A stretch of DNA of 64,000 nt from a virus (lineage: Duplodnaviria > Heunggongvirae > Uroviricota > Caudoviricetes), in the IMG/VR virus record IMGVR_UViG_2718218133_000001. One strand, written 5' to 3'. Of the stretch, positions 13,728 to 59,912 are shown one piece after another. The notes beneath the pieces were generated by a model. That model did no database searches. It saw only the letters and a program-made list of their open reading frames with translations, and was not told the origin of the DNA. How positions within the stretch are numbered: position 1 is the first letter of the stretch; each line of letters starts with the position of its first letter. A program made the position numbers and the translations under genes.

Positions 13728-13734
13728 GGTAAGT

Positions 13735-14028: not shown

Positions 14029-14034
14029 ATTTAT

Positions 14035-14409: not shown

Positions 14410-15041
14410 CCAGAATCACTGAAGAGCGCATATCAGAGATTATTTCCCGTATCGAAATGTATGGTCACGGTGCTGGATATACGGCAGATGAAGTATTGGA
14501 AATAGCCCAGCAGATGCTGGCCTTGAGACAAAAAGAGCAACATGAAAGTAATACGTGTAGATTGAATTTTGAGCATTGGCTGGAACAGCAACGCGGGAAA
14601 ATCGATGTGGACTGTGGTTGTGTGTCCACTGAAACATTCATGCACTGGCTGCGGGTAGCTTACGAGGCTGGCAACTATCCGGATATTCCGGATAGTTCGG
14701 TGCCAGCACCAGGAAAGGGCGTCACCGGTGAACGTATCCGAATTAAGCCGCATGTTTATCGCGAACTGGTTAACCGTCTCCACGATACAGCGATCAAGTG
14801 TGCTGGCACCCAGCAATTACGAGAAAGAATTAGCCGTGTTTTGGGCGACGTTATTACACCAGATCATCATAAACAAGCCGAGAAAAGTGGCCTGGAAAGG
14901 TGTCGCCTTGAGGCGGCATTAAACATTAAGCCGGGGCATACGCTTGGCATTATTGATGCACTATTGGTTCATAAGATGGCCAGGGCTTTATTGCCGCTGG
15001 TGGCTGAAAAGCATGAGGTGGACCATGCCAACGAAAGCTGA
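14391..15041 (+). CDS. hypothetical protein
   Basis: 216-aa ORF. Confidence 0.4.
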   Translation: MAQKEMTRITEERISEIISRIEMYGHGAGYTADEVLEIAQQMLALRQKEQHESNTCRLNFEHWLEQQRGKIDVDCGCVSTETFMHWLRVAYEAGNYPDIPDSSVPAPGKGVTGERIRIKPHVYRELVNRLHDTAIKCAGTQQLRERISRVLGDVITPDHHKQAEKSGLERCRLEAALNIKPGHTLGIIDALLVHKMARALLPLVAEKHEVDHANES

Positions 15042-15293
15042 ATTACAGGTGCGCGTAGATGAGCTTGAAAAAGAGAACGCGAGCCTCAAAAAAATGCTGT
15101 CGCGGGCGGAAAGGGAATTATCAGGCAAATTATTGCCAGAAGAACTGCCACCAGCAGATATACCTGATCGAGTGTCCTGGTGGATGAAGTATTTCCGTGC
15201 ACCGTGGGAGGCGTTTTGGTGCTACGACCATCGCAGATGGTGTGATGAACTTGATAGCAATTTTCCCTACTTTGCGGAAGGGAACACCTGCCC

Positions 15294-15644
15294 TCAATGC
15301 AGGGGATAGCATTTGACGAAATCGATCACCCTATCCTGAACTTCAGAAAGAAGGTCTTTTTCACGCGCCAGGACGTCAGGATATTGACGTTCTGGCCTTA
15401 CCAGATGCCGGAGCTTCCCATTAAGCAGAATGGCCTCAGAAAACACTTTTACGCTGTGCTTTATCCCCTCTGTTTCACTTTTCAGCGTCAAAATAAAGCG
15501 CAATTGCTTATTAGCCTGATTCGGATTCAATACACGAATTTGCAGTTCGTCTATGCTGTTCCGCAATGGGATTGATGCCACCACACTGGTGCAGTCTCTG
15601 ATTGTCTGAATTGAACGGCTAACATTGAGAACGTTATTGTGCAT
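15294..15644 (-). CDS. hypothetical protein
   Basis: 116-aa minus-strand ORF between plus-strand blocks. Confidence 0.3.
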   Translation of the reverse strand: MHNNVLNVSRSIQTIRDCTSVVASIPLRNSIDELQIRVLNPNQANKQLRFILTLKSETEGIKHSVKVFSEAILLNGKLRHLVRPERQYPDVLAREKDLLSEVQDRVIDFVKCYPLH

Positions 15645-15676
15645 GTGCCTGATCCACTAACTCCTGGAGGTTTCTT

Positions 15677-15928
15677 GTGTCAGATCGAAATATAGCAGCT
15701 AAAAGCCAGGAAGAGCGAGACAAGGTGAACGTAGACCTTGCCGCCAGCGGCGTTGCTTACAAAGAACGGCTGAATATACCTGTGATTGCAGAGCAGGTGG
15801 CCCGTGAGCAACCGGAAAACCTGCGCGCCTATTTCATGGAACGGCTACGGCACTACCGGCAGTTAAGCCTCCAGTTGCCAAAAGGGAGCGATCCGGTGTA
15901 TCAGAACGAGGATGCACCAAAAAAATAA
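15677..15928 (+). CDS. hypothetical small protein
   Basis: 83-aa ORF. Confidence 0.3.
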
Positions 15929-16013
15929 CGGCAAGATGGGGGAGAAATGTGATTAGCCCCCAGCGTGGCGCGCCTACAAACCCCGCTTTCACAAACTATG
16001 CCTTTTCAATGTA

Positions 16014-16033
16014 TACTGTATGAATAAACAGTA
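16014..16033 (+). promoter_or_regulatory. LexA (SOS) box
   Basis: tactgtatgaataaacagta fits CTGT-N8-ACAG, 19 bp upstream of the humD ATG and overlapping a -10-like tatact. Confidence 0.7.
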
Positions 16034-16051
16034 TCATTGAGGTAAAACGCT

Positions 16052-16441
16052 ATGGGCTTCCCTTCTCCTGCGGCGGATTATGTTGAAAGCCGAATTTCTC
16101 TTGATCAGCAGATAATTAGACATCCTTCAGCGACCTACTTCATGCGGGCAGCTGATAGCCATCACCGTGAGGGAATATTGCAGGGTGCTTTGCTGGTGGT
16201 TGATTCCTCGCTTACTCCGGTTGATGGTTCTCTGCTTGTGTGCGCTATGGAGGGTGAATATCGCATAAAGAGATACAGGAAGTATCCGCGCCAGCACCTG
16301 GAGGACTTAAGCACCGGGAAGAAAGAGGCGTTACCAGTAGATGACGATGGATACACGGGCAGTAATGCTGTTTTTGGTGTGATCACTCATGTCATCAATG
16401 ATGCCCGAAGTGGGGAATTTGATGATTGTCCGGTTATTTAA
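16052..16441 (+). CDS. humD: UmuD-like S24 peptidase (P1 HumD)
   Basis: 129 aa; LexA/UmuD-type C-terminal domain pattern; preceded by the LexA box. Confidence 0.8.
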   Translation: MGFPSPAADYVESRISLDQQIIRHPSATYFMRAADSHHREGILQGALLVVDSSLTPVDGSLLVCAMEGEYRIKRYRKYPRQHLEDLSTGKKEALPVDDDGYTGSNAVFGVITHVINDARSGEFDDCPVI

Positions 16442-26792: not shown

Positions 26793-28100
26793 ATGAGCGA
26801 ATATGTTGAGTTAGCATACGCTGCCGCTACAAGCAGGCTTTGTCTATTTACCGGGACTGGCTTTTCAAAGGCAGTCTCGAACGGTGAAGCTCCAACGTGG
26901 AAGGAACTATTAAAAAAAGTTTGCAGCAAAGTTCACAATGCCAAAAAGTTGGAAGACACGTTATTCCCTGATGATAAACCACCAGCACTGAGTCTTGAAG
27001 AAGCCGCACAAATACTATCTTTGAAGCTCAATATTGAGGGTAAGTCGATTTATGATGAAATTGTTGACATCATATCTCCAATTCAACTTGGAGAAGACAT
27101 ATCAAATATAAAAGATTTTTTCCAAAAAAACTCATTCCGTGTCATTACAACAAATTATGACAAGTTGGCTGAATGCTTGGTTGGAGATGAAAGTGTGCAG
27201 TCTATCACGCCCGGCCTGCCAATTCCAAAGTATCCATCCAAGGTGAAAATATATCATGTTCATGGTTCTATTGATTCGCCAAAAAATATGATTGTCACTT
27301 CAGATGATTACTTCAGATTTATAAATTCCGATACTTATTTTTCACGAAAACTTAGTACGATGCTGCATGAAAATACAGTTGCGATATTAGGGTATTCTTT
27401 AAGCGACACAAATCTTAAAGCAATTATAAATGACTATAAAAAATTTTCGAAAAATAATGCCCTGTGCTCTAATATCTTTTTGATATCTCGCAACAAAGTA
27501 AGTCAAGATATGAAGGATTATTACTTCTATTGCTTTGGTATAAGGGTAATTGACAATACAGAAATAGATTGTTTCTTTAGTCGATTAAGTTATAAGATTT
27601 CTCTCATTAAAGACATCATTGAAAGAGCGCGCGAAAATATCAGAAAAGTTGTTTCGGGGGCTTACACTTATAAAAATGAATATCTTAAATTAGAGGATTC
27701 ATTTTATCAAATTATATCATCAATTATATCGGAAGGTTTAGATTGGAATGATGATAAAGTCGTTTCTCTTTTCGAAAGGATAATAGAAAAAAAGAGAAAG
27801 TTAACAAGGAATAACGGAGCGTGGGAGCAATATGAACAGTTGGCAAAATGGCTTATATATTTTGGAAGCATCATAGAGGTTAGCAATACTAAGTATGAAA
27901 AAACATATTTAGACGCAGTTGAATACTCGATGGGTCATATGAGTAAAGAAAGGAATTGGGGAGTTTCTTGGCATGCTTACAGAGCTTGGGAAACACGATG
28001 GCCTGCAATAATTGCCTCAAATAGATTAATGATAAAAAACCACATTGAAACATTAGGCACCTTGAAGGACGCCAACCTTATAGTTAAGAATATAGTGTAA
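26793..28100 (+). CDS. stand-alone SIR2-like (SIR2_2/ThsA-type) putative NAD+-hydrolysing defence protein with uncharacterised C-terminal domain
   Basis: 435 aa; motifs in canonical order: LFTGTGFSKA, ITTNYDKL, YHVHGSIDSP, ILGYSLSDTNL; putative catalytic Asn and His present; GGAG RBS; clearly more AT-rich than the flanking genes. Confidence 0.8.
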   Translation: MSEYVELAYAAATSRLCLFTGTGFSKAVSNGEAPTWKELLKKVCSKVHNAKKLEDTLFPDDKPPALSLEEAAQILSLKLNIEGKSIYDEIVDIISPIQLGEDISNIKDFFQKNSFRVITTNYDKLAECLVGDESVQSITPGLPIPKYPSKVKIYHVHGSIDSPKNMIVTSDDYFRFINSDTYFSRKLSTMLHENTVAILGYSLSDTNLKAIINDYKKFSKNNALCSNIFLISRNKVSQDMKDYYFYCFGIRVIDNTEIDCFFSRLSYKISLIKDIIERARENIRKVVSGAYTYKNEYLKLEDSFYQIISSIISEGLDWNDDKVVSLFERIIEKKRKLTRNNGAWEQYEQLAKWLIYFGSIIEVSNTKYEKTYLDAVEYSMGHMSKERNWGVSWHAYRAWETRWPAIIASNRLMIKNHIETLGTLKDANLIVKNIV

Positions 28101-28865: not shown

Positions 28866-31800
28866 TTATGCGTATTGTTGGATGACGGCCAGAACGTCCG
28901 CCAGGTTGTGTTTTGTCTCGATAATCCACCAGTTACCCGGGAAATCGCTGTTCTTCGCCTTCGCTGGCAGCCAGCGAGCGCCGAATTTCGCCTTGATTGC
29001 GTCTTTCGCACGGAAAAGAACGCCTTTCATGCCTGAGGCTTCCTGAAGCCCAAATACCTCGCCAGCGGCGAATTTTGGTGCGTACATCATCTTCAGGTCG
29101 GCGGTGGATACGCGATAATTCAGACCAAGAGACTGAGCTATGCTGGTGGCATCACCCTGTATTGATGATAACTCTTCTTGTTTCTCGTTTCTGGCGGCAA
29201 TTTCTTCCTCCGTGATGTTGCCAAGGGCCAGGTTTATCCGATCAGCGTCGGCCTGTTTCTCTTCATCGGTGCGCCCGGCAAGAACCGTGTTAATTCTCTG
29301 CAATATCTCCACATGATTCTTACGCATGCTGAGCAATTCCGGCGTAACTTCGTTAAGATCCACCAGCCCAAGGATGGCAAGGTCGGAAAACATTGATACC
29401 AGGTTGTAGGTCATGCGATAGCTGAGTTGGCCATAGGCTGATGGCAACTGCACCGCATCCATTTTATAGGCATCCATAAATTTAGAGCCGTCGTTTACGA
29501 CATCCGCAATTGCCGGTGTGATTTTTCCTGTGGTGGCGGCCTCCCTGATTGCTGTTACCCACGATTGAGTCAGCGCGGAAACTGCATGATTCAGATTGGC
29601 TTTGCGTTCTGCTGCAATGCGCGCGCTTGCAGCGTCCATTGACTGTTTGATCTCGTCTTTATTGCTGTAAATGCCAATGGTGCCAAACTGTGCTGTGGTG
29701 ATCTCATAATCTGACGCCCGGAACTCATTGGTACCGAAAATGGCATTGGTGACTTCAAGTTCAGAATCCCCGTTACGAGTAGCCCCCTGGCTTGTTTTTT
29801 CCGGCATTCTGGCGATCGCATCCGCTATTTTCTCCTGAATTGCTTCAGGGGATAGCGTATCTCCGTATGACGCGATTACATCGCCATAATTGGAGCCAAA
29901 CAGTTCAACCAGGAATGTTTCTGCCGAACGGATCTGGCGGTTATTCCCTTCCGACATCATACCAAGCACCCATTTTGCAATTGACGACTTCAGCGCGCCG
30001 TCACGGCGATCCGGGTAAACCGCATGCTTCAGTGGGTCCGTATAGGTACCAACAAAATCAATGCTATAGCCTGACTCTGTAGTCTGAACGCCGTATGAGT
30101 CAGTGATTTTGATCATGCCGCGCTGCTGGAAACGGTAGAAATCGTCACAGGAAATGATGTCGTTAATCCCGGCGATGGAGACGCCGCCACTGATTTTCTG
30201 CATAACAGCATCTTCATCGGGAGTTACATCAACCTGTTTATCCAGCGTCTTCACATCCCAGTTACCCGATTTGGTGCCTTTGAAGGTAAAGATGATCTCC
30301 ACGTCTGCGCGCTGGCTGTCGAAGTCCAGCGACTTAATGCGAACGATATCACCGGCACAATCGTAGTATTGGCCTACACGCCATGAGCGATCGCCGATAA
30401 CAAGGAACTCACTCGCATGGTTAACCAGGTCAGGATCAACATCCAGAATGCCTTTATTTATTGCATCCTCCACCAGCGGGCGCAGGCGTTTGATATCCGT
30501 CGCGGCCTTCTGAGTACGGTTCAATAATTTCTCATAGCGGGAGATGGCTTGAGAGATATTAGCCTTGCGCTGAATGGCGTTTTTCAACGACGCGCGATAC
30601 TGTGCTAACAACATACGGTCTGTGTGATGGACGCTCCCCCAGCGGGCCTTCCAGTCTGCGTTATCAGCTGCTTTGGCCATTACCGCCTGTTTGAATTTAG
30701 CTACCTCGGCGGTGGTCTTTTCAAGTTCCGCTTTGCTTCGCTCTAATTCAGCGGTAAGTACCTCCACATCCTCGCCAGCTGCGTGCTGCGCCTTGATGTA
30801 GTTCTGAAGGTCGATAGTAGCCTGTTCTTTCTGGCGAGCGCGTTGCGCGGCTTTCGCCTTATCCATTTGAACCTGCATCATTGCCAGACGTTCGCCATCA
30901 TCCTTAGCGGTATACATCTGCATTTCGATCATTTCGTTGGCGTCGGCGTTCTCCATTTCAGACTTATCTGAGCGGAGGATATCGGAGATCCAGCCTGCTT
31001 TACGCTTCAGCGTCTTCAGTCGGTATTCATCGAAAGAACCCTTGCCGCAGTAGTAGTGAACGCGAACGCTTGCACGGTTGGAGCCAACTCGTGCACCGCG
31101 ACCGTTACGTTGTGCGATACTGGCTGGTGTCCACGGCAACGTCAGGTGGTGGATATCCGTCGTTCCTCGATGCAGGTTGATACCCACCTCTGCCTTTTTG
31201 TTGCAGATGATGATCGGAGTCCGGCCCTCCTGGAAGTCGGCTGCAATCTTTTCCAGACCGCCCAACGACATTTCATTTTGCTGCGCGATATAGGCGTCAT
31301 ACAGAGCCATTTGCTCGTTGTATTTCGCTATCTGTGCATCTGTTGGTTCATCCGGTAGCTCTTTCGGCGGTTTAACCGCTTTCAGTTTCTTACCGGTTTT
31401 ACCTGCCTCGGCAACCGTCTGAGCATTCAGGATCCCCACCTTTGAAGGTTCAAGGTTAAGAGCATTGCAGATAATGCGCTTGAGCTTCTGGTGTTGCGTT
31501 TTTTCATCGGTGAAGATGATTTGCTTACCTTCCTGGAAAAACTCCTTCAGCGTGGCAATCAGCTTCGCGTATTTGGGCGTAACGGGGTGAGTTACGGTCT
31601 GTTCGTCAATGCCAAACCTGGCCAGGCGCTTATTCACTTCCTGCTCGAACGCTTCCGGAACCTGCAACTGAATAAACTCGCCCTTATCTATCAGGGAGTA
31701 TTGCGATTGCTGCGTGATTGAATCATCACTGTCGTCGTCTTCGCTGGTGGCTTGTTTAGGCAAACTGTCCGCCAGCTGCTGCACCGCATCGGCGTACTCC

Positions 31801-41226: not shown

Positions 41227-41423
41227 ATGTGTAAAAAACGACTGAAAGAAAAGCGGTGGTCCAGACGCCGACAAAAGCACGAACTCGCAAACAAACGCCA
41301 AAGTTGGCAATGGCACGCGCTTTTCACGAAAAGAACACCCCGAGATATTGCGTTCGCTGGTGGGAAAACATTCCTGACCCACCTGAAGGCGCAATACATC
41401 AGGTTTTAAGCAGAGGAAAGACT

Positions 41424-42101
41424 ATGAATAACATGACAACGAAAGAGCTTTTGACGGCACTTCCAAAATACAAAAGCCATAAAACAGTTCGCGCCTCAAA
41501 AATCAAAGATATCGAAATTATCGCCCTAATGGATGTGGTCCTTTTTTGCAACATCGAAGTCGTTGAGCCAGAAGGGGTAAAAGTCCATGTTGATAAAATA
41601 TTTTTGCAAAAACACCGACCAGAAATTGGCGGATATCTGGTCGCTTATGAGGACGGATCTCTGTCCTATTCACCAGAAAAAACATTTGAAGAAGGCTTTA
41701 GTCGGACTAACGACTTCTTCGAAAATGGGGTATCGCTCAGCATTGAAGGTCACAATGGGGTGACATTCATTACAGCCAGGGACGTAACTATTTCTGCTGG
41801 CGGTATCGCTACTCTACAAGAAGAAATCGACCTTGAAGCAGCCGACTTTTCTGACGCGCTGATGTGGCTGAAGGATGGCAAGAAAGTTGCCCGACGCGGG
41901 TGGAACGGCGAAAACCAATTCTGCTGGCTGGTTCCTGAAGGACAGTACCCGGCACGAATGGAAGCCATTAAGGGATATTTCCCCGGCGACCTCGTTCCGT
42001 ATGGTGCTTATTTCGCCTTAAAAAATGCACAAGGTGTAGTTGTTCCGTGGGTTCCTTCTGTAGGCGACTTACTGGCATGTGACTGGTTTGTAGTGGAGTG
42101 A
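41424..42101 (+). CDS. hypothetical protein with DUF2829-like C-terminal domain
   Basis: ATG with GAGGAAAG RBS inside the track ORF; C-terminal ALMWLKDGKKVARRGWNG..FCWLV pattern. Confidence 0.4.
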   Translation: MNNMTTKELLTALPKYKSHKTVRASKIKDIEIIALMDVVLFCNIEVVEPEGVKVHVDKIFLQKHRPEIGGYLVAYEDGSLSYSPEKTFEEGFSRTNDFFENGVSLSIEGHNGVTFITARDVTISAGGIATLQEEIDLEAADFSDALMWLKDGKKVARRGWNGENQFCWLVPEGQYPARMEAIKGYFPGDLVPYGAYFALKNAQGVVVPWVPSVGDLLACDWFVVE

Positions 42102-42107
42102 TTTAAC

Positions 42108-42890
42108 GTGGAAAATACTAAAGCAATTCAATACCGCCTGCGTAATGGTCAGAGTGTCGAAGTGACCATCAATAATGATGGTGTGCCTGGCGAAAAGGTT
42201 TCGATCTCTGATCTGGCTATCGAAAAAACCATCATGTGCCACCTTGGCTTTACTGAAGAAGTGAGCAAAAAGCATGGTGTAGCAATCTGGAGCGCAATGG
42301 ATACTGGTATGCACAGATTCATTACTGCTCGTACCCCAGGGATGACCATGATGGACCTCATGCAGATTGCGCCGCTGTTTGAATGTGAGCCTTTAGATGT
42401 ATTCAGCAATCCAGCTATCTGCCAGCAGCTATATGGTGAGATGAAACTCGCGGTTACCCCCATTGTGCTGCATGAAGGATCGCTTGCTGGCGTGTGGAAA
42501 GTGGAGCGTATTTCAAGCTACATGCCTTTCCATGTCAACGGCGTAATCACTGGTGAAAATCAACCTGTTTCCGTTATAAAGTCAGACCTCAAGCGCGCAA
42601 TTCTTGAAGCAAGTTGTCGAGTTGTCGGCCTGGGCAAACAGTCTTATGTTTCCTTCCCGGCTGGCCCTGAAGGCCCGGCAGAAATTCTGATTATGGATGC
42701 CGATCTGCTCTGGCAAATACAGTTTCTGATTGGCAAAAGCATCATCCGCGCTGAAGAACTCGATCAGTACATTACCTGCACGATGACGGATGAAGTCAAA
42801 AGTGTGGCTATAGCCAATGCCCGGAACCTATGTCGTGCCGCATTAACAGAACTGCAAGAAAACACCACGGAAGAAGTGGAAAGCGATTAA
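42108..42890 (+). CDS. hypothetical protein
   Basis: 260-aa ORF, GTG start; ends at a bidirectional terminator. Confidence 0.4.
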   Translation: MENTKAIQYRLRNGQSVEVTINNDGVPGEKVSISDLAIEKTIMCHLGFTEEVSKKHGVAIWSAMDTGMHRFITARTPGMTMMDLMQIAPLFECEPLDVFSNPAICQQLYGEMKLAVTPIVLHEGSLAGVWKVERISSYMPFHVNGVITGENQPVSVIKSDLKRAILEASCRVVGLGKQSYVSFPAGPEGPAEILIMDADLLWQIQFLIGKSIIRAEELDQYITCTMTDEVKSVAIANARNLCRAALTELQENTTEEVESD

Positions 42891-50197: not shown

Positions 50198-50324
50198 TTT
50201 TTACCTATACAACAGTAAGTTGAACAACATCTGAGAACGGTATGCACTTTGTGATTTCCACACACACTGGTTTTGTTAATTAAAACCTGTAGCTTGCAAT
50301 AAATAACGATAGTGGGCAGAAAAT

Positions 50325-50510
50325 ATGCTAATAGGCTATGTACGCATATAGACAAATGAACAAAACACAGCTATGCAGTGAAAAGCACTTGAAAGCGCAG
50401 GATGTGAGCTAATTTTTGCGAATAAGGCGAGCAGCAAAAAGGCTGGGCACCCTGGGTTAAAAAAGGTTCTGCGTATGCTTTCCAGAGGTGATACCCTAGT
50501 CTCGGGCTAG
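50325..50510 (+). pseudogene. degenerate 5' remnant of a cin/gin-type serine invertase gene
   Basis: Translation MLIGYVRI*TNEQNTAMQ*KALESAGCELIFANKASSKKAGHPGLKKVLRMLSRGDTLV matches the N-terminus of Cin/Gin invertases but has in-frame TAG (codon 9, where the catalytic Ser is expected) and TGA (codon 19), then diverges. Confidence 0.6.
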
Positions 50511-50632
50511 GGACAACATTTCGAGGACAGTTTTCATTAGCGGTCAGCAGGCGCTAGATACATCGAATTGATGTGCCGCGCGATAAATGTACCTATTCTA
50601 TCAAGATAAATTACACCGACGCGGCATTAGAA

Positions 50633-51205
50633 TTACAGCTCAGATTGAGTTTGGCGCTTCTCTACAGGATGATAACGATAAATCGTCGATACACCGATAT
50701 CGTAAATAATTGCCAACTGTTTCCTGCTGTAGCCATTTTCGATCAACCTCGCTATTTGCTCATGTTGTTCTTTTGTCAACTTCGGGCGACGTCCGCCAAT
50801 GCGTCCCTGTTCGCGTGCAGCTGCCAGTCCGGCCAGTGTTCTCTCAACAATTAATTCACGTTCCATTTCTGCTAAAGCCCCCATGACGTGAAAAAAGAAA
50901 CGCCCCATGGGTGTTGATGTGTCAATACTGTCTGTCAGACTACGGAAATTAACACCTTTTTCCCGCAACTCCTCTATAAGCGTGATAAGGTGTTTCATAC
51001 TTCTGCCAAGCCTATCCAGCTTCCAGACAACCAGCGTATCTCCTTCTGATAACGTTCTGAGCAGCTTTTTCAAGCCTGGTCTGGCTGACTTTGTTCCGCT
51101 TATTTTATCTTCAAAAATCAGTTCACATCCTGCGCAGTTCAGTGCATTTCTTTGTAAATCTGTGTTTTGGTCATTTGTTGACACACGAATGTAGCCAATT
51201 TGCAT
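50633..51205 (-). CDS. cin: Cin/Min-family serine DNA invertase
   Basis: From the ATG at 51203-51205: MQIGYIRVSTNDQNTDLQRNAL..; resolvase catalytic domain plus C-terminal HTH; adjacent to the first crossover site. Confidence 0.9.
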   Translation of the reverse strand: MQIGYIRVSTNDQNTDLQRNALNCAGCELIFEDKISGTKSARPGLKKLLRTLSEGDTLVVWKLDRLGRSMKHLITLIEELREKGVNFRSLTDSIDTSTPMGRFFFHVMGALAEMERELIVERTLAGLAAAREQGRIGGRRPKLTKEQHEQIARLIENGYSRKQLAIIYDIGVSTIYRYHPVEKRQTQSEL

Positions 51206-51259: not shown

Positions 51260-51285
51260 AAGACTAAAACGTTGGTTTGGGGGAA
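51260..51285 (+). repeat. invertase crossover site 1 (hix/gix-like)
   Basis: ..aaaacg-TT-ggtttgggggaa; resembles the hix core AAAACC-AA-GGTTTTT; conserved half-site GGTTTGGGGGAA. Confidence 0.55.
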
Positions 51286-51752
51286 GGCTCTGCATTGCCT
51301 GTTGGTGTACCTGTTCCATGGCCCTCAGCCACACCACCAACGGGGTGGCTAAAATGTAACGGAGCAGCATTTTCTTCTGAAAAGTACCCAAATCTGGCAA
51401 AGGTTTACCCAACGTTAAAATTACCTGATTTACGCGGTGAGTTTATCCGTGGTTGGGATGATGGGCGCGGGGTGGATGCGGGACGTGCTTTATTGAGCAT
51501 TCAGACAGGAATGCTGGAAAAGCACCGACATATTGTTGTAGCCAATGATGGTTACGACACAAAAGATGAATGGGAGCTGGCGACAATTTTCAAAAAAACA
51601 TACACACAAGGACGGGGCTTGATGCCTCAAATACAGGAGGGAATTTGATTCCATCACCGACACTTCATTCTCGAGGGAGTATTGGTAATACTGGCGGGAG
51701 TGAAACCCGTCCACGAAATATCGCATTTAATTACATCGTAAGGGCGGCATAA
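51277..51752 (+). pseudogene. tail-fibre variable cassette 1 (frameshifted)
   Basis: Conserved N-terminal module GEGSALPVGVPVPWPSATPPTGWLKCNGAAFSSE.. in frame 1 (track ORF 51277..51648); conserved C-terminal ETRPRNIAFNYIVRAA only in another frame (track ORF 51570..51752). Confidence 0.45.
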
Positions 51753-51771
51753 AAACGTTGGTTTGGGGGAA
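51746..51771 (+). repeat. invertase crossover site 2
   Basis: Same core aaaacg-TT-ggtttgggggaa. Confidence 0.55.
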
Positions 51772-52260
51772 GGCTCTGCATTGCCTGTTGGCGTACCTGT
51801 TCCGTGGCCATCAGCCACACCTCCAACGGGGTGGCTGAAATGCAATGGTGCAGCATTTTCTTCTGAAAAGTACCCAAATCTGGCAAAGGCTTATCCCACC
51901 AATAAATTACCGGATTTACGGGGAGAATTTATTCGTGGCTGGGATGATGGGCGTGGCATTGATCCTAGACGTGCCTTGCTAAGTCTTCAGAATGGAGGAG
52001 TGGAATCACACACCCACCAAGGGCAGCTCTTCAGAGTTAGTGATTATCGTACAAATGAAATACCAGCATCAGAAGTTATGGGAAGAAACTATCTTGCAAG
52101 CCTGACGCCGGGTGCTAATAGCCCACTTGATTTTGATGATTATCCTGTAGCTCTTATTCCAAATGGATATTTTGTCGGGAATCAGAGAACAACAGCATAT
52201 GGGATAAATGAAACCCGTCCACGGAATATTGCATTTAATTACATCGTAAGGGCGGCATAA
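51763..52260 (+). CDS. tail-fibre variable cassette 2 (promoterless 3' gene segment)
   Basis: Starts in-frame inside the crossover site with no ATG; conserved N- and C-terminal modules, unique middle. Confidence 0.6.
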   Translation: MGEGSALPVGVPVPWPSATPPTGWLKCNGAAFSSEKYPNLAKAYPTNKLPDLRGEFIRGWDDGRGIDPRRALLSLQNGGVESHTHQGQLFRVSDYRTNEIPASEVMGRNYLASLTPGANSPLDFDDYPVALIPNGYFVGNQRTTAYGINETRPRNIAFNYIVRAA

Positions 52261-52279
52261 AAACGTTGGTTTGGGGGAA
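52254..52279 (+). repeat. invertase crossover site 3
   Basis: Same core. Confidence 0.55.
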
Positions 52280-52699
52280 GGCTCTGCACTGCCTGTTGGT
52301 GTGCCCGTTCCGTGGCCCTTAGAAACACCACCAACGGGCTGGCTAAAATGTAACGGAGCAGCATTTTCTTCTGAAATGTATCCCAAACTGGCAAAAGCCT
52401 ACCCCACCAATAAATTACCGGATTTACGCGGTGAATTTATCCGTGGCTGGGATGATGGGCGCGGGATTGATGCGGGACGTACCCTGCTTTCAGGGCAGGA
52501 TGGTACAAGTTTTTCTCATTACGGAGGTAATTTCGACATTGGGTCTGGTCATTCAATCAATAACTATGACCAAATTGTTTCTAACCAACCAGGATTTTCC
52601 CGTTTTTCATTTGCAGGGCCTTCACGAGGTGATGGGGTTAATTATGTAACCATTCGTCCTCGTAACATTGCGTTTAATTATATCGTAAGGGCGGCATGA
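52271..52699 (+). CDS. tail-fibre variable cassette 3
   Basis: As cassette 2; different central segment. Confidence 0.6.
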   Translation: MGEGSALPVGVPVPWPLETPPTGWLKCNGAAFSSEMYPKLAKAYPTNKLPDLRGEFIRGWDDGRGIDAGRTLLSGQDGTSFSHYGGNFDIGSGHSINNYDQIVSNQPGFSRFSFAGPSRGDGVNYVTIRPRNIAFNYIVRAA

Positions 52700-52718
52700 A
52701 AACGTTGGTTTGGGAGAA
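52693..52718 (+). repeat. invertase crossover site 4 (variant half-site GGTTTGGGAGAA)
   Basis: Same core with one substitution. Confidence 0.5.
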
Positions 52719-53207
52719 GGCTCTGCATTACCTGTTGGTGTCCCTGTTCCGTGGCCTTCAGCCACTCCGCCAACAGGCTGGCTGAAATGCAACGGTGCGG
52801 CTTTTTCTGCTGAAGAATACCCGGAACTGGCAAAGGCTTACCCGACAAATAAATTGCCTGATTTACGTGGTGAGTTCATTCGTGGCTGGGATGACGGGCG
52901 CGGGATTGATCCAGGTCGCTCTATTTTAAGCGAGCAAGGATATGCAACGGAGGATCATGCTCACGGATTACCGTCAAAATCAACCGTAGCAACTGACAGC
53001 TCAATTAATTTCTACTTTGACGAGGCATGGGCTACTAGTGGTAATACGGGAGTTATCAGATGGGGGAACACAAGCGATGCAGGATTGCCAGCCCCTAATT
53101 ATGGAACTTTTAAAACATATAAACAGTCCGTAGCTAATTTAGGTACTGCTGGCTTAGAAACCCGCCCTCGTAATATTGCATTTAATTATATTGTGAGGGC
53201 GGATTAA
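52710..53207 (+). CDS. tail-fibre variable cassette 4
   Basis: As cassette 2; different central segment. Confidence 0.6.
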   Translation: MGEGSALPVGVPVPWPSATPPTGWLKCNGAAFSAEEYPELAKAYPTNKLPDLRGEFIRGWDDGRGIDPGRSILSEQGYATEDHAHGLPSKSTVATDSSINFYFDEAWATSGNTGVIRWGNTSDAGLPAPNYGTFKTYKQSVANLGTAGLETRPRNIAFNYIVRAD

Positions 53208-53212
53208 TTATA

Positions 53213-53824
53213 TCAACTGGCTGTAGAAAGTTGTTTTTCAGGCCAGTTGAGATCTGGTGCCGTGGTTAAATCCATCGCGTTCAGCTCGTCTATATAATCT
53301 AGCACGGAGTTAAGCTGCGTGGTTTCTGCCTGCGTCAACTTCCGTCCAGCCCGTAATTTCAACTGAATCAGACTAATGGAATCCATCGCAGTATCAATCA
53401 ATGACTGACGTTTTGTTTCTGCTGCCTCTACAGCTGCACTATGTTGAGCCTCAGTATCAACCACCCATTTCTCTCCATCCCATTTGTCGTATGGTGTTAG
53501 CGGGGCGATAGTGGTTGTATTTTCCGGATAGTCACCCAACACCGTGATTTCTTCGGGATTCCCTGTGTCAATGCTATAGACAGTTTCGCCACGATGATCT
53601 GGCACATACTCCCATGAACTTAAATCCTCTGAACGGAGAATCGCATAACCTGCTTTATGTGAGCCTGGAGCATCCAAACAAGAATGTGCCGGAATACCAA
53701 CGCCAACAGCAAGATATTCAGTTGATGCAGAAATATATTCCCGATTACCACCATCATAGTTATAAACGATAATGTTTCCTGCCTGTATGGCTATAAGTTC
53801 GCTATTTAATATCGCATTATCCAT
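53213..53824 (-). CDS. U: tail fibre assembly protein (U-like)
   Basis: 203-aa ORF whose ATG overlaps the cassette 5 stop (TAATG coupling); Tfa-like composition. Confidence 0.7.
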   Translation of the reverse strand: MDNAILNSELIAIQAGNIIVYNYDGGNREYISASTEYLAVGVGIPAHSCLDAPGSHKAGYAILRSEDLSSWEYVPDHRGETVYSIDTGNPEEITVLGDYPENTTTIAPLTPYDKWDGEKWVVDTEAQHSAAVEAAETKRQSLIDTAMDSISLIQLKLRAGRKLTQAETTQLNSVLDYIDELNAMDLTTAPDLNWPEKQLSTAS

Positions 53825-54282
53825 TATGCTGCTCTCACAATATAATTGAAGGCAATGTTACGTGGGCGGGTTTCATTCCCCCCAGATAACTCCGTTCTGT
53901 ATTGACTGGTAAATTTACCATTAATCGCTCCTTCTTGGACGGCGTTATCTGTCGACAACAGGCTATCCCCCCCTCTGTCATTTGGCACCAATACCGTGTT
54001 ATCCCACGCGTCCCATGACCGAATATTATGATAATGACTTCCTGTTAACCACCCCTGTATGCTTAAGATGACCCTTCCCGCATCCACACCTCGCCCATCA
54101 TCCCAACCACGGATAAACTCACCGCGTAAATCAGGTAATTTTAACGTTGGGTAAACCTTTGCCAGATTTGGGTACTTTTCAGAAGAAAATGCTGCGCCAT
54201 TGCATTTCAGCCACCCCGTTGGAGGTGTGGCTGATGGCCACGGAACGGGCACGCCAACGGGCAGTGCAGAGCCTTCCCCCAA
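53824..54282 (-). CDS. tail-fibre variable cassette 5 (minus orientation, coupled to U)
   Basis: Same conserved N- and C-terminal modules on the minus strand, starting inside crossover site 5. Confidence 0.6.
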   Translation of the reverse strand: MGEGSALPVGVPVPWPSATPPTGWLKCNGAAFSSEKYPNLAKVYPTLKLPDLRGEFIRGWDDGRGVDAGRVILSIQGWLTGSHYHNIRSWDAWDNTVLVPNDRGGDSLLSTDNAVQEGAINGKFTSQYRTELSGGNETRPRNIAFNYIVRAA

Positions 54283-54299
54283 ACCAACGTTTTATGCCG
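54274..54299 (-). repeat. invertase crossover site 5 (inverted orientation)
   Basis: Reverse complement of the core: ttcccccaaacc-AA-cgtttt. Confidence 0.55.
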
Positions 54300-54717
54300 C
54301 CCTTACGATGTAATTAAATGCAATGTTACGAGGACGATGGTTACATATTACGACCATCAATCGTGAATGTCCAGTATAATGAAAAACTCAATAATTCCGT
54401 CTTAGGCTGTAGATAATACTTGTCATAGTTATGATTGAATGACCAGACTCAATGTCGAAATTACCTCCGTAAAGAAAACAATATGTCTGATCCTGCCATT
54501 CTGAATAGCAGTACGTCCAGATCAATCCCCGCCCATCATCCCAGCCGCGATAAATTCACCCGTAAATCCGGTAATTTATTGTGGGTAGCCTTTGCCAGTT
54601 TGGGATACTTTCAGAAGAAAATGCTGCACCGTTGCATTTCAGCCACCCCGTTGGAGGTGTGGCTGATGGCCACGGAACGGGCACGCCAACAGGCAGTGCA
54701 GAGCCTTCCCCCAAACC
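54300..54717 (-). pseudogene. degenerate variable cassette currently joined to the S constant region
   Basis: Paralogue of cassette 3 with multiple single-base deletions; reading frame from the constant part stops at 54556 after ..AAFSSE-SIPNWQRLPTINYRIYG. Confidence 0.55.
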
Positions 54718-57135
54718 AAGGTAATTAAGAACGCTCTGAATACTGGGCTTACTAAGAATTGCACGTCCAACACTTGTCAGTGCAGTTAACGCGGCACGAT
54801 CAACCCCTGTGAAATAAGGGAGTTTATCTGCTGCGGTAGCTAGTGCCGCTAGAGCAGTGAGCGTAGCGTCTGCCGCTTGCTTTCCATTAGCCAAATCATA
54901 TGCAGCCTTGACAGCTTTCGGTGTAGCGGCCAGCACTTCAGACGTGCTGTTAGTGGCACTACTGAGCTGAGTGATGCCTTTCGCTGTCAATGAAGCTGTT
55001 GGCACACCAGTAATCTGATTCCAGGGATGTGTATGACTGGATGGTGCTTTTTCGGCTGCTAGATCGTATGCAGCTTTAACCGCTTTTGGCGTTGCAGCTA
55101 ATGTTTCAGAAGTGCTGTTGGTGTCGCTACTGAGCTGAACTATCCCTTTTTGTGTCGTGGTTGCATCCTGGGCTGTATACTTCCCGTTAGCCAGGTCATA
55201 TGCAGCCTTGACAGCTTTCGGTGTGGCGGCCAGCACTTCAGACGTGCTGTTAGTGGCACTACTGAGCTGAGTGATGCCTTTCGCTGTCAATGAAGCTGTT
55301 GGCACACCAGTGATCTGATTCCAGGGATGTGTATGACTGGATGGTGCCTTTCCGGCTGCTAGATCGTATGCAGCTTTAACCGCTTTTGGCGTTGCAGCTA
55401 ATGTTTCAGAAGTGCTGTTGGTGTCGCTACTGAGCTGAACTATCCCTTTTTGTGTCGTGGTTGCATCCTGGGCTGTATACTTCCCGTTAGCCAGGTCATA
55501 TGCAGCCTTGACAGCTTTCGGTGTGGCGGCCAGCACTTCAGACGTGCTGTTAGTGGCACTACTGAGCTGAGTGATGCCTTTCGCTGTCAATGAAGCTGTT
55601 GGCACACCAGTGATCTGATTCCAGGGATGTGTATGACTGGATGGTGCCTTTCCGGCTGCTAGATCGTATGCAGCTTTAACTGCTTTTGGCGTTGCAGCTA
55701 ATGTTTCAGAAGTGCTGTTGGTGTCGCTACTGAGCTGAACTATCCCTTTTTGTGTCGTGGTTGCATCCTGGGCTGTATACTTCCCGTTAGCCAGGTCATA
55801 TGCAGCCTTGACAGCTTTCGGTGTGGCGGCCAGCACTTCAGACGTGCTGTTAGTGGCACTACTGAGCTGAGTGATGCCTTTCGCTGTCAATGAAGCTGTT
55901 GGCACACCAGTGATCTGATTCCAGGGATGTGTATGACTGGATGGTGCCTTTCCGGCTGCTAGATCGTATGCAGCTTTAACCGCTTTTGGCGTTGCAGCTA
56001 ATGTTTCAGAAGTGCTGTTGGTGTCGCTACTGAGCTGAACTATCCCTTTTTGTGTCGTGGTTGCATCCTGGGCTGTATACTTCCCGTTAGCCAGGTCATA
56101 TGCAGCCTTGACAGCTTTCGGTGTGGCGGCCAGCACTTCAGACGTGCTGTTAGTGGCACTACTGAGCTGAGTGATGCCTTTCGCTGTCAATGAAGCTGTT
56201 GGCACACCAGTGATCTGATTCCAGGGATGTGTATGACTGGATGGTGCCTTTCCGGCTGCTAGATCGTATGCAGCTTTAACCGCTTTTGGCGTTGCAGCTA
56301 ATGTTTCAGAAGTGCTGTTGGTGTCGCTACTGAGCTGAACTATCCCTTTTTGTGTCGTGGTTGCATCCTGGGCCGTATACTTCCCGTTAGCCAGGTCATA
56401 TGCAGCCTTGACAGCTTTCGGTGTGGCGGCCAGCACTTCGGACGTGCTGTTAGTAGCACTGCTGAGCTGAACTAATCCCTTTTGCGTTGTGCTTGCATCC
56501 TGCGCCGTATACTTGCTTTTCGCCAGATCGTAGGCTTTTTTAACTGCCAGCGAACTTGCAGCGACATCACTTCTGGTACTGGTTACAGAGTCGGAAATTT
56601 CAATGCCTATCGTGAGATCGATGCGGTCGGATACATCTATCATTTCCTGAGTAATAGCAGATACGCCAGCAGGGATATTCACCGTACAAACAAGCAGTTC
56701 CCCATCTCCTAACTGATATGAATCGGTATAGGTTCTGGCAACAAATTCAGCTGCATGAATATGTGACGCGGTATTCACCTGATAGGTATCTTCTCCAAGA
56801 AGGTATCTTCCCTTCAGCACAATTGCATATTTCTTGCCTGCGTTAAGTGCAAGAGAGATATCCTTACGATGCTGAATAGTTACCTGGTAGAATTCACCAA
56901 TATCCACTGACGCCGCGCCAGCGGTTTTATCTCCATCCACTGAGGTGATTAACAGGTTCATCCCACCGCCAGGCTTAGGCAAGAAACCAGCATAAAATCC
57001 CGGGTCAACAATTCCCCTGAATTTTCGGTTTAGAGCGGCTGACAGATATGGTTCGTGGTATTGCACATCAGCCACCAGAGCCAACGACTCGGGTGATGGG
57101 TAAGTAACCGATGTAACAACTGTAACGTCATTCAT
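54556..57135 (-). CDS. S: tail fibre protein S, constant part plus fused degenerate cassette
   Basis: Likely start MNDVTVVTSV (the track ORF extends to 57222); about five 100-aa repeats with HTHPWNQITGVP motifs; ends in the crossover-site-encoded LGEGSALPVG. Confidence 0.8.
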   Translation of the reverse strand: MNDVTVVTSVTYPSPESLALVADVQYHEPYLSAALNRKFRGIVDPGFYAGFLPKPGGGMNLLITSVDGDKTAGAASVDIGEFYQVTIQHRKDISLALNAGKKYAIVLKGRYLLGEDTYQVNTASHIHAAEFVARTYTDSYQLGDGELLVCTVNIPAGVSAITQEMIDVSDRIDLTIGIEISDSVTSTRSDVAASSLAVKKAYDLAKSKYTAQDASTTQKGLVQLSSATNSTSEVLAATPKAVKAAYDLANGKYTAQDATTTQKGIVQLSSDTNSTSETLAATPKAVKAAYDLAAGKAPSSHTHPWNQITGVPTASLTAKGITQLSSATNSTSEVLAATPKAVKAAYDLANGKYTAQDATTTQKGIVQLSSDTNSTSETLAATPKAVKAAYDLAAGKAPSSHTHPWNQITGVPTASLTAKGITQLSSATNSTSEVLAATPKAVKAAYDLANGKYTAQDATTTQKGIVQLSSDTNSTSETLAATPKAVKAAYDLAAGKAPSSHTHPWNQITGVPTASLTAKGITQLSSATNSTSEVLAATPKAVKAAYDLANGKYTAQDATTTQKGIVQLSSDTNSTSETLAATPKAVKAAYDLAAGKAPSSHTHPWNQITGVPTASLTAKGITQLSSATNSTSEVLAATPKAVKAAYDLANGKYTAQDATTTQKGIVQLSSDTNSTSETLAATPKAVKAAYDLAAEKAPSSHTHPWNQITGVPTASLTAKGITQLSSATNSTSEVLAATPKAVKAAYDLANGKQAADATLTALAALATAADKLPYFTGVDRAALTALTSVGRAILSKPSIQSVLNYLGLGEGSALPVGVPVPWPSATPPTGWLKCNGAAFSSESIPNWQRLPTINYRIYG
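54706..54731 (-). repeat. invertase crossover site 6 at the 3' end of the S constant region
   Basis: ttcccccaaacc-AA-ggtaatta; left half-site differs from the cassette sites. Confidence 0.55.
54880..56470. repeat. tandem array of about 5.3 x 300-bp near-identical coding repeats inside S
   Basis: The 60-bp lines at 55201, 55501, 55801 and 56101 are identical or differ by a single base (the 55501 line has an extra T-to-C); the 54901 copy is slightly diverged. Confidence 0.85.
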
Positions 57136-57146
57136 CAAGCATATCC

Positions 57147-57581
57147 TTATGCTGTAGTCGAGTTTATGGCCATAACTGCGGTATATGTTTTGCCCACATA
57201 CAGCGAGTCTTCCTGGACACAAATAATGGCGATTGGCTTATTCTCGTTATCCAGAACAACCAGAGTGTTGAATGGGTAGTTTTTCCCTTCCTGCAACTGA
57301 CTTTGATCAAGGTCCATTCGGACAGTAATTATCCCGCCTGAGTAGGTTGGGACGAGGTTGATGGTGCAAAATTGACTGGTCAGTTCTGCCAGATCGAAAG
57401 CCTTTGGCAGTTCTCCAATCTCATAAGTGCCATCTCCTTTCTTAGTAACCAGTGAACTGGTACCGAAAACGGCCTTGCTGATTAAAAATCGAGAGCCTTT
57501 GTTAATGGACGATTCAGCGCGCCGCTGATAGTAATAGTCCAACAACTGACTCTTATAGAGGTTTGTTGAGACGTCAGACAT
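57147..57581 (-). CDS. tail-fibre-region protein (P1 R position)
   Basis: 144-aa ORF immediately upstream of S. Confidence 0.45.
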   Translation of the reverse strand: MSDVSTNLYKSQLLDYYYQRRAESSINKGSRFLISKAVFGTSSLVTKKGDGTYEIGELPKAFDLAELTSQFCTINLVPTYSGGIITVRMDLDQSQLQEGKNYPFNTLVVLDNENKPIAIICVQEDSLYVGKTYTAVMAINSTTA

Positions 57582-57659: not shown

Positions 57660-58379
57660 TCACGCATCGCTATCCAACAGCAAATCATCTGCGCGGGTGC
57701 GATCAAACGTAGGCGTTGCTTTCACAATAGTGCCACCAGGCGTTGCGGTGATCGGGGCGCTAATCGACGTAACTCCAGTAAGCGAAGTTGTATCCGAAGT
57801 TTCAAACCAGCAGAATGCTTTTTCGGTATCAGAAATCTCGTTCAAAGTGATCATGTCGGCCTGTTCATTTACAACAACCGACAAATAGAGCGTAAGCCCA
57901 TCAAACACTATATGCAGTGGCAGTAGAGGCTTTACGAACTGATTAAACTTTCTGAGAATTTCTTCTGTAATTGCGGACTGATCTATCGTTCCAGTAATAC
58001 CCATTGTCCGGGCCAGGTCGTTTATGGGAATACTGATCATTCCTCTGGAAGTCAGAAACATCTCGCCGAATGTGCCGCCGGTGGTTTCCAGTGTGCTTTC
58101 TGGAATCAGGACCGTACCATAGGGATGACGTTCAAAGTCCACCGGAGCATATATGGGATCCCATAAAACCGATATACCGTTAAATTCGCGATAAATTGTC
58201 TGGTTTATAGGGCGTTCAGTGCCCTTAAAATGGATCTCATCAAACCGCTGTTGTAGCAACATCGGAACGGAAGATGAATTCGACGTTCTGATAGTAAAAA
58301 ACTGGCCAAGTTCATTTGTCCTGGTCTCCAGATCCTCCTTGCTCATGGAGAAAATAGACTTCCGGTTGGTAGTCAACAA
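57660..58379 (-). CDS. baseplate-region structural protein (P1 gene 16 position)
   Basis: 239-aa ORF in the tail/baseplate block. Confidence 0.4.
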   Translation of the reverse strand: MLTTNRKSIFSMSKEDLETRTNELGQFFTIRTSNSSSVPMLLQQRFDEIHFKGTERPINQTIYREFNGISVLWDPIYAPVDFERHPYGTVLIPESTLETTGGTFGEMFLTSRGMISIPINDLARTMGITGTIDQSAITEEILRKFNQFVKPLLPLHIVFDGLTLYLSVVVNEQADMITLNEISDTEKAFCWFETSDTTSLTGVTSISAPITATPGGTIVKATPTFDRTRADDLLLDSDA

Positions 58380-58478
58380 AGGTGTCCATCATTGACTGAA
58401 CCAAATCAGCCAATGATTTATAAAGTAATGACTTTTGCTTAGCTGATGTAAGCCGGTTATTAAACCAGGAACGCTGCA

Positions 58479-59912
58479 TCACTCCTCCTCATACGAAATA
58501 TTAAAGGTGGAGTTTTCTGTATCCAGATAAACGAAATCGTAAAAGCCGTTGGACTCATTCCACTCGACAAATTCCAGATAAAAGTCGCGGAAATAGCCCA
58601 GCGTTTCGATAAACGCCCAAACGTCTTTTTTCTTAATCAGGATGTACTTTCCGACGCGGTTCGGATCAAAGAAAGTTGAGTCGCGCCCAAATTTTGTTTC
58701 CAGTGCCGACTTCAGCTCATCGGTCACGTTCTCAATGGTCAGGCTTGCCGATATTCGCCCGGTGATGGTGATCTTAAAGGGTAGTTTTCTGACCTCTTTA
58801 TACGAAAATTTCTTGTTCAACTCATTCGGCACCTTCTTAAAAGCGGCCAGGATCATTTCCTCAAGCTCTGACTGACTTTTATTCGGATGCCATCCTGAAA
58901 TAAATATCTTATTGATATTCCGAACATTATAAGCACCATCTAATTTCTCTTGCTGGCCTTCGCCCCATGCCTTTACCCAGGACAGTCCCGGGATGTTACG
59001 CACCAGAAAATACGTATAGTCCCCGCCCCATACGACCTGATCATCATAGGCAAGGTAATATTGTGCACGATTACGTGTGATCTCCGTTGTTTCGGCATCG
59101 GTACCTGCGGTTATGGGTGTCGTTGTCTTAACTGAAATCAAATTAGCTAAATTAGCCGCAGAATCGACAGGCGTCAGATTTTGGCCAGCAACCAAGGTTA
59201 TATCTCCGTTGGTGCACCATACCTTAAGTGTAATGGTCGAGCCTTCTGGCGGTATTTGCCCAATTAGCCCATCACCGAATCGAACCCCCAACTGCTCGGA
59301 TGGTTTATAAAACTCAACGTAGACCTGGCTTTTACTACCGGCTAACCGGAACATAGTGCTGGAAGACCACTGCGTGGTCTTACCATCGGTCGTCACGAAT
59401 ACTTCCAGCTTATAGCAGACAGCAGTGAGAGCCTTTGATAACACGACTTCCAGAAATTCTTTGGCTGCCGTAACGGTATATGTCACCTCCTGGATTTCCA
59501 ACTGTGCCACTTCTACCGTACCGGTGCCGTCAACCAACCTGCATACATCCATAGTCATGTAAGGGTACTGGTCGTCAGATATTAAAGGCATATTTTTGGG
59601 GATTACCGCTGGGGCATCTTCACTTGTGGCGGTGATCTCAATCATCCCCGATGACGGTGTTGGCTTGGTACCAACGTAACTATTCGTTTCTGCCGCTGCC
59701 AGGATAGAGGAACGCCGCGTCGCGGTCGATATAAAGCCTTCAGCCAGCGCCGCATCGGCATACTGAAAGCACCTGTAGACAATCTGGGTAATAAACAATG
59801 TCAGCATCGAGACAAATTGAGAGCCGACAAACTTCGACCAGAATGAATCTTTCTCGACAAGCTCTTCAAACTCTGCACGAATACTGTCTTTAGTCGGTGT
59901 TGTTTTACTCAT
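58479..59912 (-). CDS. baseplate protein (BplA/gpJ-like)
   Basis: 477-aa ORF upstream of the gp25-like gene. Confidence 0.45.
   Translation of the reverse strand: MSKTTPTKDSIRAEFEELVEKDSFWSKFVGSQFVSMLTLFITQIVYRCFQYADAALAEGFISTATRRSSILAAAETNSYVGTKPTPSSGMIEITATSEDAPAVIPKNMPLISDDQYPYMTMDVCRLVDGTGTVEVAQLEIQEVTYTVTAAKEFLEVVLSKALTAVCYKLEVFVTTDGKTTQWSSSTMFRLAGSKSQVYVEFYKPSEQLGVRFGDGLIGQIPPEGSTITLKVWCTNGDITLVAGQNLTPVDSAANLANLISVKTTTPITAGTDAETTEITRNRAQYYLAYDDQVVWGGDYTYFLVRNIPGLSWVKAWGEGQQEKLDGAYNVRNINKIFISGWHPNKSQSELEEMILAAFKKVPNELNKKFSYKEVRKLPFKITITGRISASLTIENVTDELKSALETKFGRDSTFFDPNRVGKYILIKKKDVWAFIETLGYFRDFYLEFVEWNESNGFYDFVYLDTENSTFNISYEEE

Follow-up and report, generated by a model that had tools for sequence, protein, structure and literature searches.

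The stretch of DNA analysed here, referred to as the window, comprises 64,000 nucleotides of IMG/VR virus record IMGVR_UViG_2718218133_000001 (Caudoviricetes) and contains a tail-fibre operon of the phage P1 type in which the 3' part of the fibre gene S is represented by several alternative cassettes separated by short recombination sites. Adjoining the cassettes is an intact gene for a serine DNA invertase, min, and on the opposite side lie the constant 5' part of S (Sc), a homologue of the P1 gene R and a late promoter. The locus is very probably a Min multiple DNA-inversion region of the type known from plasmid p15B, carried on a P1-like phage-plasmid.

The crossover sites were located by searching both strands of the whole 64-kb window for AAACGTTGGTTTGGGGGAAGG with three or fewer mismatches, with 100 dinucleotide-preserving shuffles as the control. 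Exactly six matches are present, four on the plus strand (starting at 51267, 51753, 52261 and 52700) and two on the minus strand (54272-54292 and 54704-54724), and at the same threshold none of the shuffles (0/100) yields a match. The sites, termed mix, are as follows.

51260-51285, plus strand: mix site 1, min-proximal, AAGACTAAAACG TT GGTTTGGGGGAA
51746-51771, plus strand: mix site 2, GGCATAAAAACG TT GGTTTGGGGGAA
52254-52279, plus strand: mix site 3, GGCATAAAAACG TT GGTTTGGGGGAA
52693-52718, plus strand: mix site 4, GGCATGAAAACG TT GGTTTGGGAGAA, with one mismatch, in GGTTTGGGAGAA
54274-54299, minus strand: mix site 5, CGGCATAAAACG TT GGTTTGGGGGAA
54706-54731, minus strand: mix site 6, at the 3' end of Sc, TTCTTAATTACC TT GGTTTGGGGGAA

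The sites share a 12+2+12 format with the core dinucleotide TT (6/6) and inner bases AAACG/GGTTT, the right half-site is near-perfect in every one, and they agree with the published crossover consensus as quoted in PMC4134206. An earlier note on this DNA had described six hix/gix-like sites, four direct and two inverted, between 51260 and 54731; both the count and the orientations are borne out, and these bounds coincide with the outer limits of sites 1 and 6, which define an invertible region of 3472 bp. The note also placed site 6 where Sc ends, which is correct; the same site heads a sixth cassette that had been left uncounted. The site pair of the Escherichia coli EC958 prophage Phi2, GAGAGATAAACG TT GGTTTGGGGGAA and TCCTCAATTACC TT GGTTTAGGAGAA (PMC4134206), matches the Sc-proximal and internal site types of the window at 22/26 positions each, with one right half identical. 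Inversion in Phi2 has been seen directly as alternative PacBio contigs (PMC4134206). Phi2 resembles the window in joining a Phage_fibre_2 constant part to a Tail Collar variable part and differs in being a chromosomal prophage with two sites and a single invertible segment.

The six sites bound five segments and six cassettes (c1 to c6), together with one tail-fibre assembly gene.

51274-51752, plus strand: cassette 1 (c1), silent collar-domain tip, frame broken by a 1-nt deletion, with the frame change after ..TQGRGL
51760-52260, plus strand: cassette 2 (c2), silent, intact, 166 codons, PF07484
52268-52699, plus strand: cassette 3 (c3), silent, intact, 143 codons, PF07484
52707-53207, plus strand: cassette 4 (c4), silent, intact, 166 codons, PF07484, one end of the double-ended segment
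53213-53824, minus strand: tfa, tail-fibre assembly (chaperone) gene, PF02413 (E 3e-30)
53824-54285, minus strand: cassette 5 (c5), silent, intact, 153 codons, PF07484 and a weak PF14928 match, the other end of the double-ended segment
54292-54717, minus strand: cassette 6 (c6), a decayed relative of c3 with several 1-nt deletions, currently fused to Sc

Four of the segments are single cassettes, each with a right half-site at its start and a left half-site at its end. The fifth, 1.6 kb long, is formed by c4, tfa and c5; it has a cassette head and a right half-site at both ends, with its two cassettes convergent, and both outer flanks of the invertible region present left half-sites. Alignment of 11 cassettes from the window and related plasmids shows an invariant N-terminal part of ~77 residues (GLGEGSALPVGVPVPWP...RGWDDGRG) and an invariant C-terminal RPRN(I/V)AFNYIVRA, which enclose a hypervariable middle of 60-90 residues. 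Among the PDB sequences, a profile of the cassettes hits the T4 long tail fibre protein gp37 at its distal tip (PDB code 2XGF, E 1e-19) and a short tail fibre (PDB code 9CUY, E 1e-22), and the 2XGF match covers the N-terminal part together with the C-terminal NIAFNYIVR strand. We infer from this that each cassette would encode a whole collar domain into which the receptor-binding tip is inserted. An AlphaFold2 model of c2 built from a 4-sequence alignment was unusable (predicted local distance difference test score, pLDDT, 33).

The cassettes are not equally sound. The earlier note had listed five, whereas six are present, the sixth being the minus-strand cassette at 54292-54717 that is fused to S. 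As usable 3' segments c2 to c5 are indeed intact, but c1 and c6 are frameshifted. In c1 the deletion changes TTGGAT to TTGAT relative to intact homologues in three related plasmid loci (L001, L004 and L006), to which it is 94% identical with 1 gap. The common ending ..ETRPRNIAFNYIVRAA proposed for all cassettes does not hold throughout, as c1 gets there only through the frameshift and c3 ends in ..TIRPRNIAFNYIVRAA. In c6 there are at least four frameshifts, and its single-base deletions hit codons that are invariant in every other cassette. Because c6 is the cassette on Sc, S is truncated at present, with a stop at 54556, 53 cassette codons into c6. The variable part of c6 is ~76% identical to that of c3, its nearest relative in the array; its best database matches are 87% identical overall and ~80% over the variable part, and nothing closer was found in 5,426 E. 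coli genomes, PLSDB, IMG/VR and the JGI metagenomes. A c6-specific 26-mer has zero matches in IMG/VR and the JGI metagenomes, and the truncated Sc-c6 protein was not on record in a database search. The variable part of c2 occurs as 100% identical copies in six P1-like plasmids, c3 is 98-100% identical to cassettes of L001, L002 and L004, and c5 is 94-100% identical in relatives.

The assembly gene tfa is the only PF02413 gene of the region and is 99.5-100% identical in relatives. Its ATG overlaps the stop codon of c5 (TAATG), so the single assembly gene coupled to c5 described in the earlier note is present as stated; the likeness to P1 U is not, since tfa has no significant sequence similarity to P1 U. 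The gene is predicted to encode a chaperone of the lambda Tfa type, for which the term U-like is true only by function.

The expressed end of the operon is formed by three features on the minus strand.

54720-57141, minus strand: Sc, constant 5' part of the P1-type S tail-fibre gene, 808 codons, 12 PF03406 repeats
57147-57581, minus strand: R homologue, first gene of the tail-fibre operon, within an ungapped block 95.9% identical to P1
57612-57630, minus strand: late promoter LPs (-22 box and -10), identical to the annotated P1 LPs

The 5' part of Sc is 95.9% identical to P1. A tandem repeat occupies 54880-56470 on the minus strand, with 5.3 copies of a 300-nt unit (100 amino acids per unit) at 98% identity (Tandem Repeats Finder), in the part of the protein carrying the 12 Phage_fibre_2 repeats; the repeat number varies among related plasmids, which implies variable fibre length. 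The LPs-type late promoter motif is absent from the invertible region. A scan of the region for sigma-70 promoters and terminators returned fewer sites than shuffles and is uninformative, and searches of the window for tRNAs and Rfam families found none. When each cassette is joined to Sc in silico, all six continue the Sc frame after the TT core, giving open reading frames (ORFs) of 974 codons for c2, 951 for c3, 974 for c4 and 961 for c5, with the c1 and c6 fusions truncated. A database protein, P0122, annotated as a partial tail-fibre protein, equals the predicted Sc-c2 fusion at 276/277 residues across the junction and is, judged by its sequence, a natural Sc-c2 fusion.

The arrangements that can be reached were counted by a breadth-first search in which inversion was allowed only between oppositely oriented sites. 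Exactly 240 arrangements are reachable, and eight inversions are available from the present state. Each of c1 to c4 is one inversion away from Sc, and c5 is two away. A decayed cassette (c1 or c6) stands on Sc in 96/240 arrangements, and tfa is co-directional with the LPs-driven operon in 120/240. The proposed sequence of events begins with LPs, which drives transcription of R, S and whatever stands downstream. Min would pair any two oppositely oriented sites, aided by the enhancer inside min and by host Fis; by analogy with the Hin/Gin/Cin family, Min dimers at two sites would assemble with the Fis-bound enhancer, cleave the core and rotate subunits. The TT core would thus be cut and the DNA between the paired sites inverted, with inversion presumably favoured over deletion as in that family. 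Repeated inversions would permute the segments through the 240 arrangements, in each of which one of the six cassettes lies on Sc, and the cassette fused to Sc would set the receptor-binding tip and with it the host range of the progeny particles.

The invertase gene, the enhancer homologue and a cin remnant lie on the other side of site 1.

50236-50560, plus strand: psi-cin, a P1-cin-like invertase remnant (promoter region and 5' part) with in-frame stops
50633-51205, minus strand: min, serine DNA invertase, 190 amino acids, intact, PF00239 (E 2e-51) and PF02796 (E 3e-15)
51111-51187, minus strand: enhancer homologue within the 5' end of min, with the nearest crossover site ~85 bp away

The Min protein is 74% identical to P1 Cin, and its residues 1-185 align with Mu Gin (PDB code 4M6F, E 3.9e-92, and PDB code 3UJ3, E 1.9e-91). 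An N-terminal resolvase domain (PF00239) is followed by a C-terminal HTH_7 domain (PF02796), the arrangement of a Din-family recombinase, and the MxIGYxRVSTNDQ motif is kept with Ser9. The protein is an exact match to UniRef100 Q05517_ECOLX, possibly the entry for p15B Min itself, and occurs on at least 1000 contigs, and at the DNA level min is 99.65-100% identical to the recombinase genes of loci L001-L006. Protein database entries name it only 'recombinase family protein', and the Min label was not found among these names. Transcription of min points away from the cassettes, which is opposite to the orientation of P1 cin. The remnant psi-cin, placed between a lydC homologue and min, is 90.1% identical to P1 31570-31832; in the notes of the P1 GenBank record the P1 cin promoter and 5' stretch is given as 89% identical to p15B nt 7147-7408. 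Within min, the 71 nt at 51111-51181 are 83.1% identical, ungapped, to P1 31684-31754. The same P1 record annotates the cin enhancer at 31678-31749 and gives p15B nt 6463-6533 as 83% identical to it, and the spacing between enhancer and cin remnant in the window agrees with the p15B coordinates derived from these record notes within 1 bp. A second copy of the cin enhancer lies in psi-cin at 50352-50418; at 89.6% identity it is closer to the P1 enhancer than the copy in min, and two enhancer elements may therefore be present in cis.

Matches to the region occur in 268 PLSDB records, for the most part E. coli plasmids of ~95 kb that are non-mobilizable. Eleven related plasmid loci were compared, among them L001 (pMCR_SCKP-LL83), and 10 were scanned for sites. 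The number of sites per scanned locus ranges from 2 (pToe51-2, which has the tfa segment only) to 13, and in 10/10 all sites point towards the tfa segment, which is exactly what rearrangement by inversion alone predicts. The double-ended segment recurs in the relatives, c4 being found in all of them convergent with tfa. Cassette types are shared, but their order and orientation differ, and all the arrangements are compatible with inversion at these sites. Cassette c1 has the reversed orientation in the window and in L002 and the forward one in L001 and L004; c3, reversed in the window, is forward in L001, L002, L004 and L008; c2, likewise reversed in the window, is forward in L008; and the tfa segment is flipped in L001. 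In L014 (NZ_LR882977.1), a record with 13 sites, more frameshifted collar-type cassettes are found at 9845-11001, outside the main array and past lyd and odaE. L009 was considered as a within-strain alternative arrangement and rejected, as it is collinear with L004 at 99.6% identity; L010 and L011 are only suggestive as a pair of alternative arrangements.

The same comparison indicates where exchange takes place. All 11 loci share the same 43 nt on the min side of site 1, and it is inside the right half-site that cassette-specific sequence begins. As the invariant flank ends at the core, the exchange point is the core, which lies outside the 200-nt conserved cassette heads. This placement bears on a different mechanism, in which RecA acting on the inverted repeats of the cassette heads, and not the invertase, is the main driver of rearrangement. 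Inverted repeats of 113-240 nt with 80-91% identity do exist between plus- and minus-strand cassettes, and the first ~110 nt of c6 are nearer to c5 and c2 than to its own family, a hint of some gene conversion. As RecA substrates, however, repeats at 80-91% identity are poor, the switch from flank to cassette falls within a few bases of the TT core in the 11 loci and is not spread over the 200-nt heads, and an intact dedicated invertase and an enhancer homologue are adjacent. Homologous recombination is therefore extremely unlikely to be the main driver, and site-specific inversion by Min is preferred.

The quality of the assembled order also needs to be considered, as the cassette order, and the garbled c6 especially, could represent the consensus of a mixed population. 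Such artefacts have parallels among the relatives, where the cassette L004_7713 repeats, with frameshifts and at 97% identity, an intact cassette of its own record, and where the tfa segment of L011 is scrambled with a clean copy on a separate 2-kb contig, L010. However, the variable part of c6, with its ~76% identity to any other cassette, carries many substitutions and so cannot be explained as a badly polished copy; the backbone is free of indels against pToe51-2 over 13-kb and 8.5-kb blocks, so the record is not generally error-prone; and the arrangement follows the inversion grammar exactly. An artefact of assembly is accordingly a very unlikely account of the window. In public 'complete' assemblies the Sc-adjacent cassette is often a frameshifted near-copy (L004 7200-7715, L011 6438-8491 and L005 5292-5755), and pieces of the invertible region also turn up as contigs of their own, 2-5 kb long (L010). 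The garbled cassettes in those assemblies are probably assembly or polishing artefacts arising from mixed arrangements in culture.

A static array forms the third alternative, according to which past Min-type inversions built the region and it now persists unchanged in a defective prophage kept as a plasmid. The state of the cassettes lends this some substance, c1 having its 1-nt deletion and c6 several, with a dead cassette on Sc and hence no functional fibre encoded at present. Outside the region, the gene 16 homologue (baseplate or tail tube, 57660-58496, minus strand) has lost 17 bp (CCATGGTTGGAGCGAAT, window 58300-58510) that P1 and pToe51-2 both keep, and this deletion throws it out of frame from about codon 36 onwards. 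The recombination machinery does not share this decay: min is intact and its exact protein is widespread, the six sites keep their TT cores and near-perfect right halves, the enhancer homologue is intact, and an invertase can still act on its sites after loss of phage function. A fossil array is on this evidence improbable, and a putatively active Min system remains the preferred reading of the region.

The closest known system is the min region of p15B, which in the work of Sandmeier, Iida, Arber and colleagues (1990-1992; Iida et al. 1990) reportedly spans ~3.5 kb with six sites. The window and p15B agree in most respects. Both have a P1-related backbone, that of p15B being an E. coli 15T- plasmid, with a Din-family serine invertase whose gene is inverted relative to P1 cin and adjoins a cin remnant (the p15B side known from the P1 record notes). 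Both have a homologue of the P1 enhancer at 83% identity, a constant 5' part of S with alternative 3' cassettes, and 240 arrangements, the number of isomeric forms given for p15B Min in PMC2481393, which cites Sandmeier et al. (1990). p15B Min is also treated in the secondary sources PMC5786510, PMC6109161 and PMC6906374. The invertible region of pMCR_SCKP-LL83 reportedly shares 99% identity with p15B min at 92% coverage (PMC5786510), and the window compared with this plasmid (L001) is 99.65% identical in min, 99.67% in tfa, 99.1% in c3 and 92-94% in c1, c4 and c5; c2 and c6 were not found in L001. Several differences are apparent. Between the P1-homologous end of Sc and the enhancer homologue in min, the window has ~514 bp more than the p15B coordinates imply, and for this reason the window is not p15B itself. 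In addition, c1 and c6 are decayed in the window, and its Sc has five 300-nt repeats. The earlier note's assignment to the p15B Min type and not to P1 cin is thus upheld by the invertase, the sites, the 240 arrangements, the inversion of min and the cin remnant together. Its further point, that such a region stands in place of the simple two-site C segment, is right in that the region is multi-site, but it overstated the rarity, given that relatives carry 2-13 sites. The Min system is already known (p15B, 1990-1992) and common in E. coli P1-like plasmids, p15B-like min regions having earlier been noted in P1/P7-like plasmids (PMC5786510), and six sites are unremarkable.

The Cin and C segment system of P1, like Mu Gin with the G segment, e14 Pin and Salmonella Hin, has a recombinase of the same family and 12+2+12 sites. 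In P1 the enhancer lies in the 5' end of the invertase gene, as its homologue does in the window, and P1 also shares the logic of swapping the 3' end of the S tail fibre, the LPs promoter, the R gene and the 5' part of S. P1 has two sites and two states, whereas the window has six sites and 240 arrangements, and the orientation of the invertase gene is opposite. The P1 cassettes are Sv segments of ~530 codons, each with its own U, in contrast with the collar tips of 143-166 codons and the one Tfa of the window. The R64 shufflon (Rci) and the bifidophage Rin system likewise use multiple overlapping inversions to pick a 3' end for a constant 5' gene part and set recipient or host specificity. 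They differ in having tyrosine recombinases (PMC6109161) and short asymmetric sfx or rix repeats, and in R64 the target is the pilus adhesin pilV. No tyrosine recombinase is present among the ORFs adjoining the region, the marks of an R64-type shufflon (Rci and 19-bp sfx) do not apply, and R64 and Rin have no homology to parts of the window, for which the word shufflon holds by analogy only.

Several points weigh against reading the region as a working p15B-type system. The record offers one assembled arrangement, and inversion at this locus is a prediction. The arrangements of the relatives are differences between lineages and not switching within a clone. The comparison with p15B rests on the proxy pMCR_SCKP-LL83, the notes of the P1 GenBank record and a secondary citation, and the presumed enhancer function and Fis dependence are deduced only from the 83% identity to the P1 enhancer. 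The decay of c1, c6 and gene 16 suggests a partly defective prophage in which the switch may still turn while selection on what it produces may be relaxed.

Elsewhere in the window, differences from pToe51-2 are found at three places. A SIR2-like protein (PF13289, E 1e-23) is encoded at 26793-28100 on the plus strand, where pToe51-2 has a RelA/SpoT-domain protein, a locus that probably serves as a hot spot for defence genes. A Tad2-like (Thoeris anti-defence 2) domain protein (PF11195, E 2.5e-22) and an ORF of unknown function at 41256-42890 on the plus strand replace the anti-phage dGTPase gene of pToe51-2. The interval 8703-16437, with PAPS-reductase-like, Ead/Ea22-like and DUF551 ORFs, has no pToe51-2 counterpart, and a type I restriction-modification system occupies this place in pToe51-2. 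A TnpB / IS605 OrfB-type ORF (PF01385, PF07282 and PF12323; 37463-38593, minus strand) is also present in pToe51-2.

The null and orientation-dependent states described above raise the question of two further layers in the switch beyond the choice of tip, a reading regarded as very unlikely. The arrangements with c1 or c6 on Sc would yield particles with truncated fibres, and supply of Tfa would depend on the orientation of the double-ended segment, since no late promoter lies inside the region. If selected rather than accidental, this would mean that the host-range shufflon of a phage contains an OFF or bet-hedging state of its own. The corrections made here, six cassettes of which two are decayed and a Tfa-type chaperone, are useful for annotation and not for novelty, promoterless cassettes being routinely annotated as separate 'phage tail protein' genes. 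Min-type regions are mixed populations, and any single assembled order is therefore arbitrary. P1-like phage-plasmids carry resistance genes such as mcr-1, and prediction of their host range should weigh every intact cassette, beyond the one that happens to be fused.

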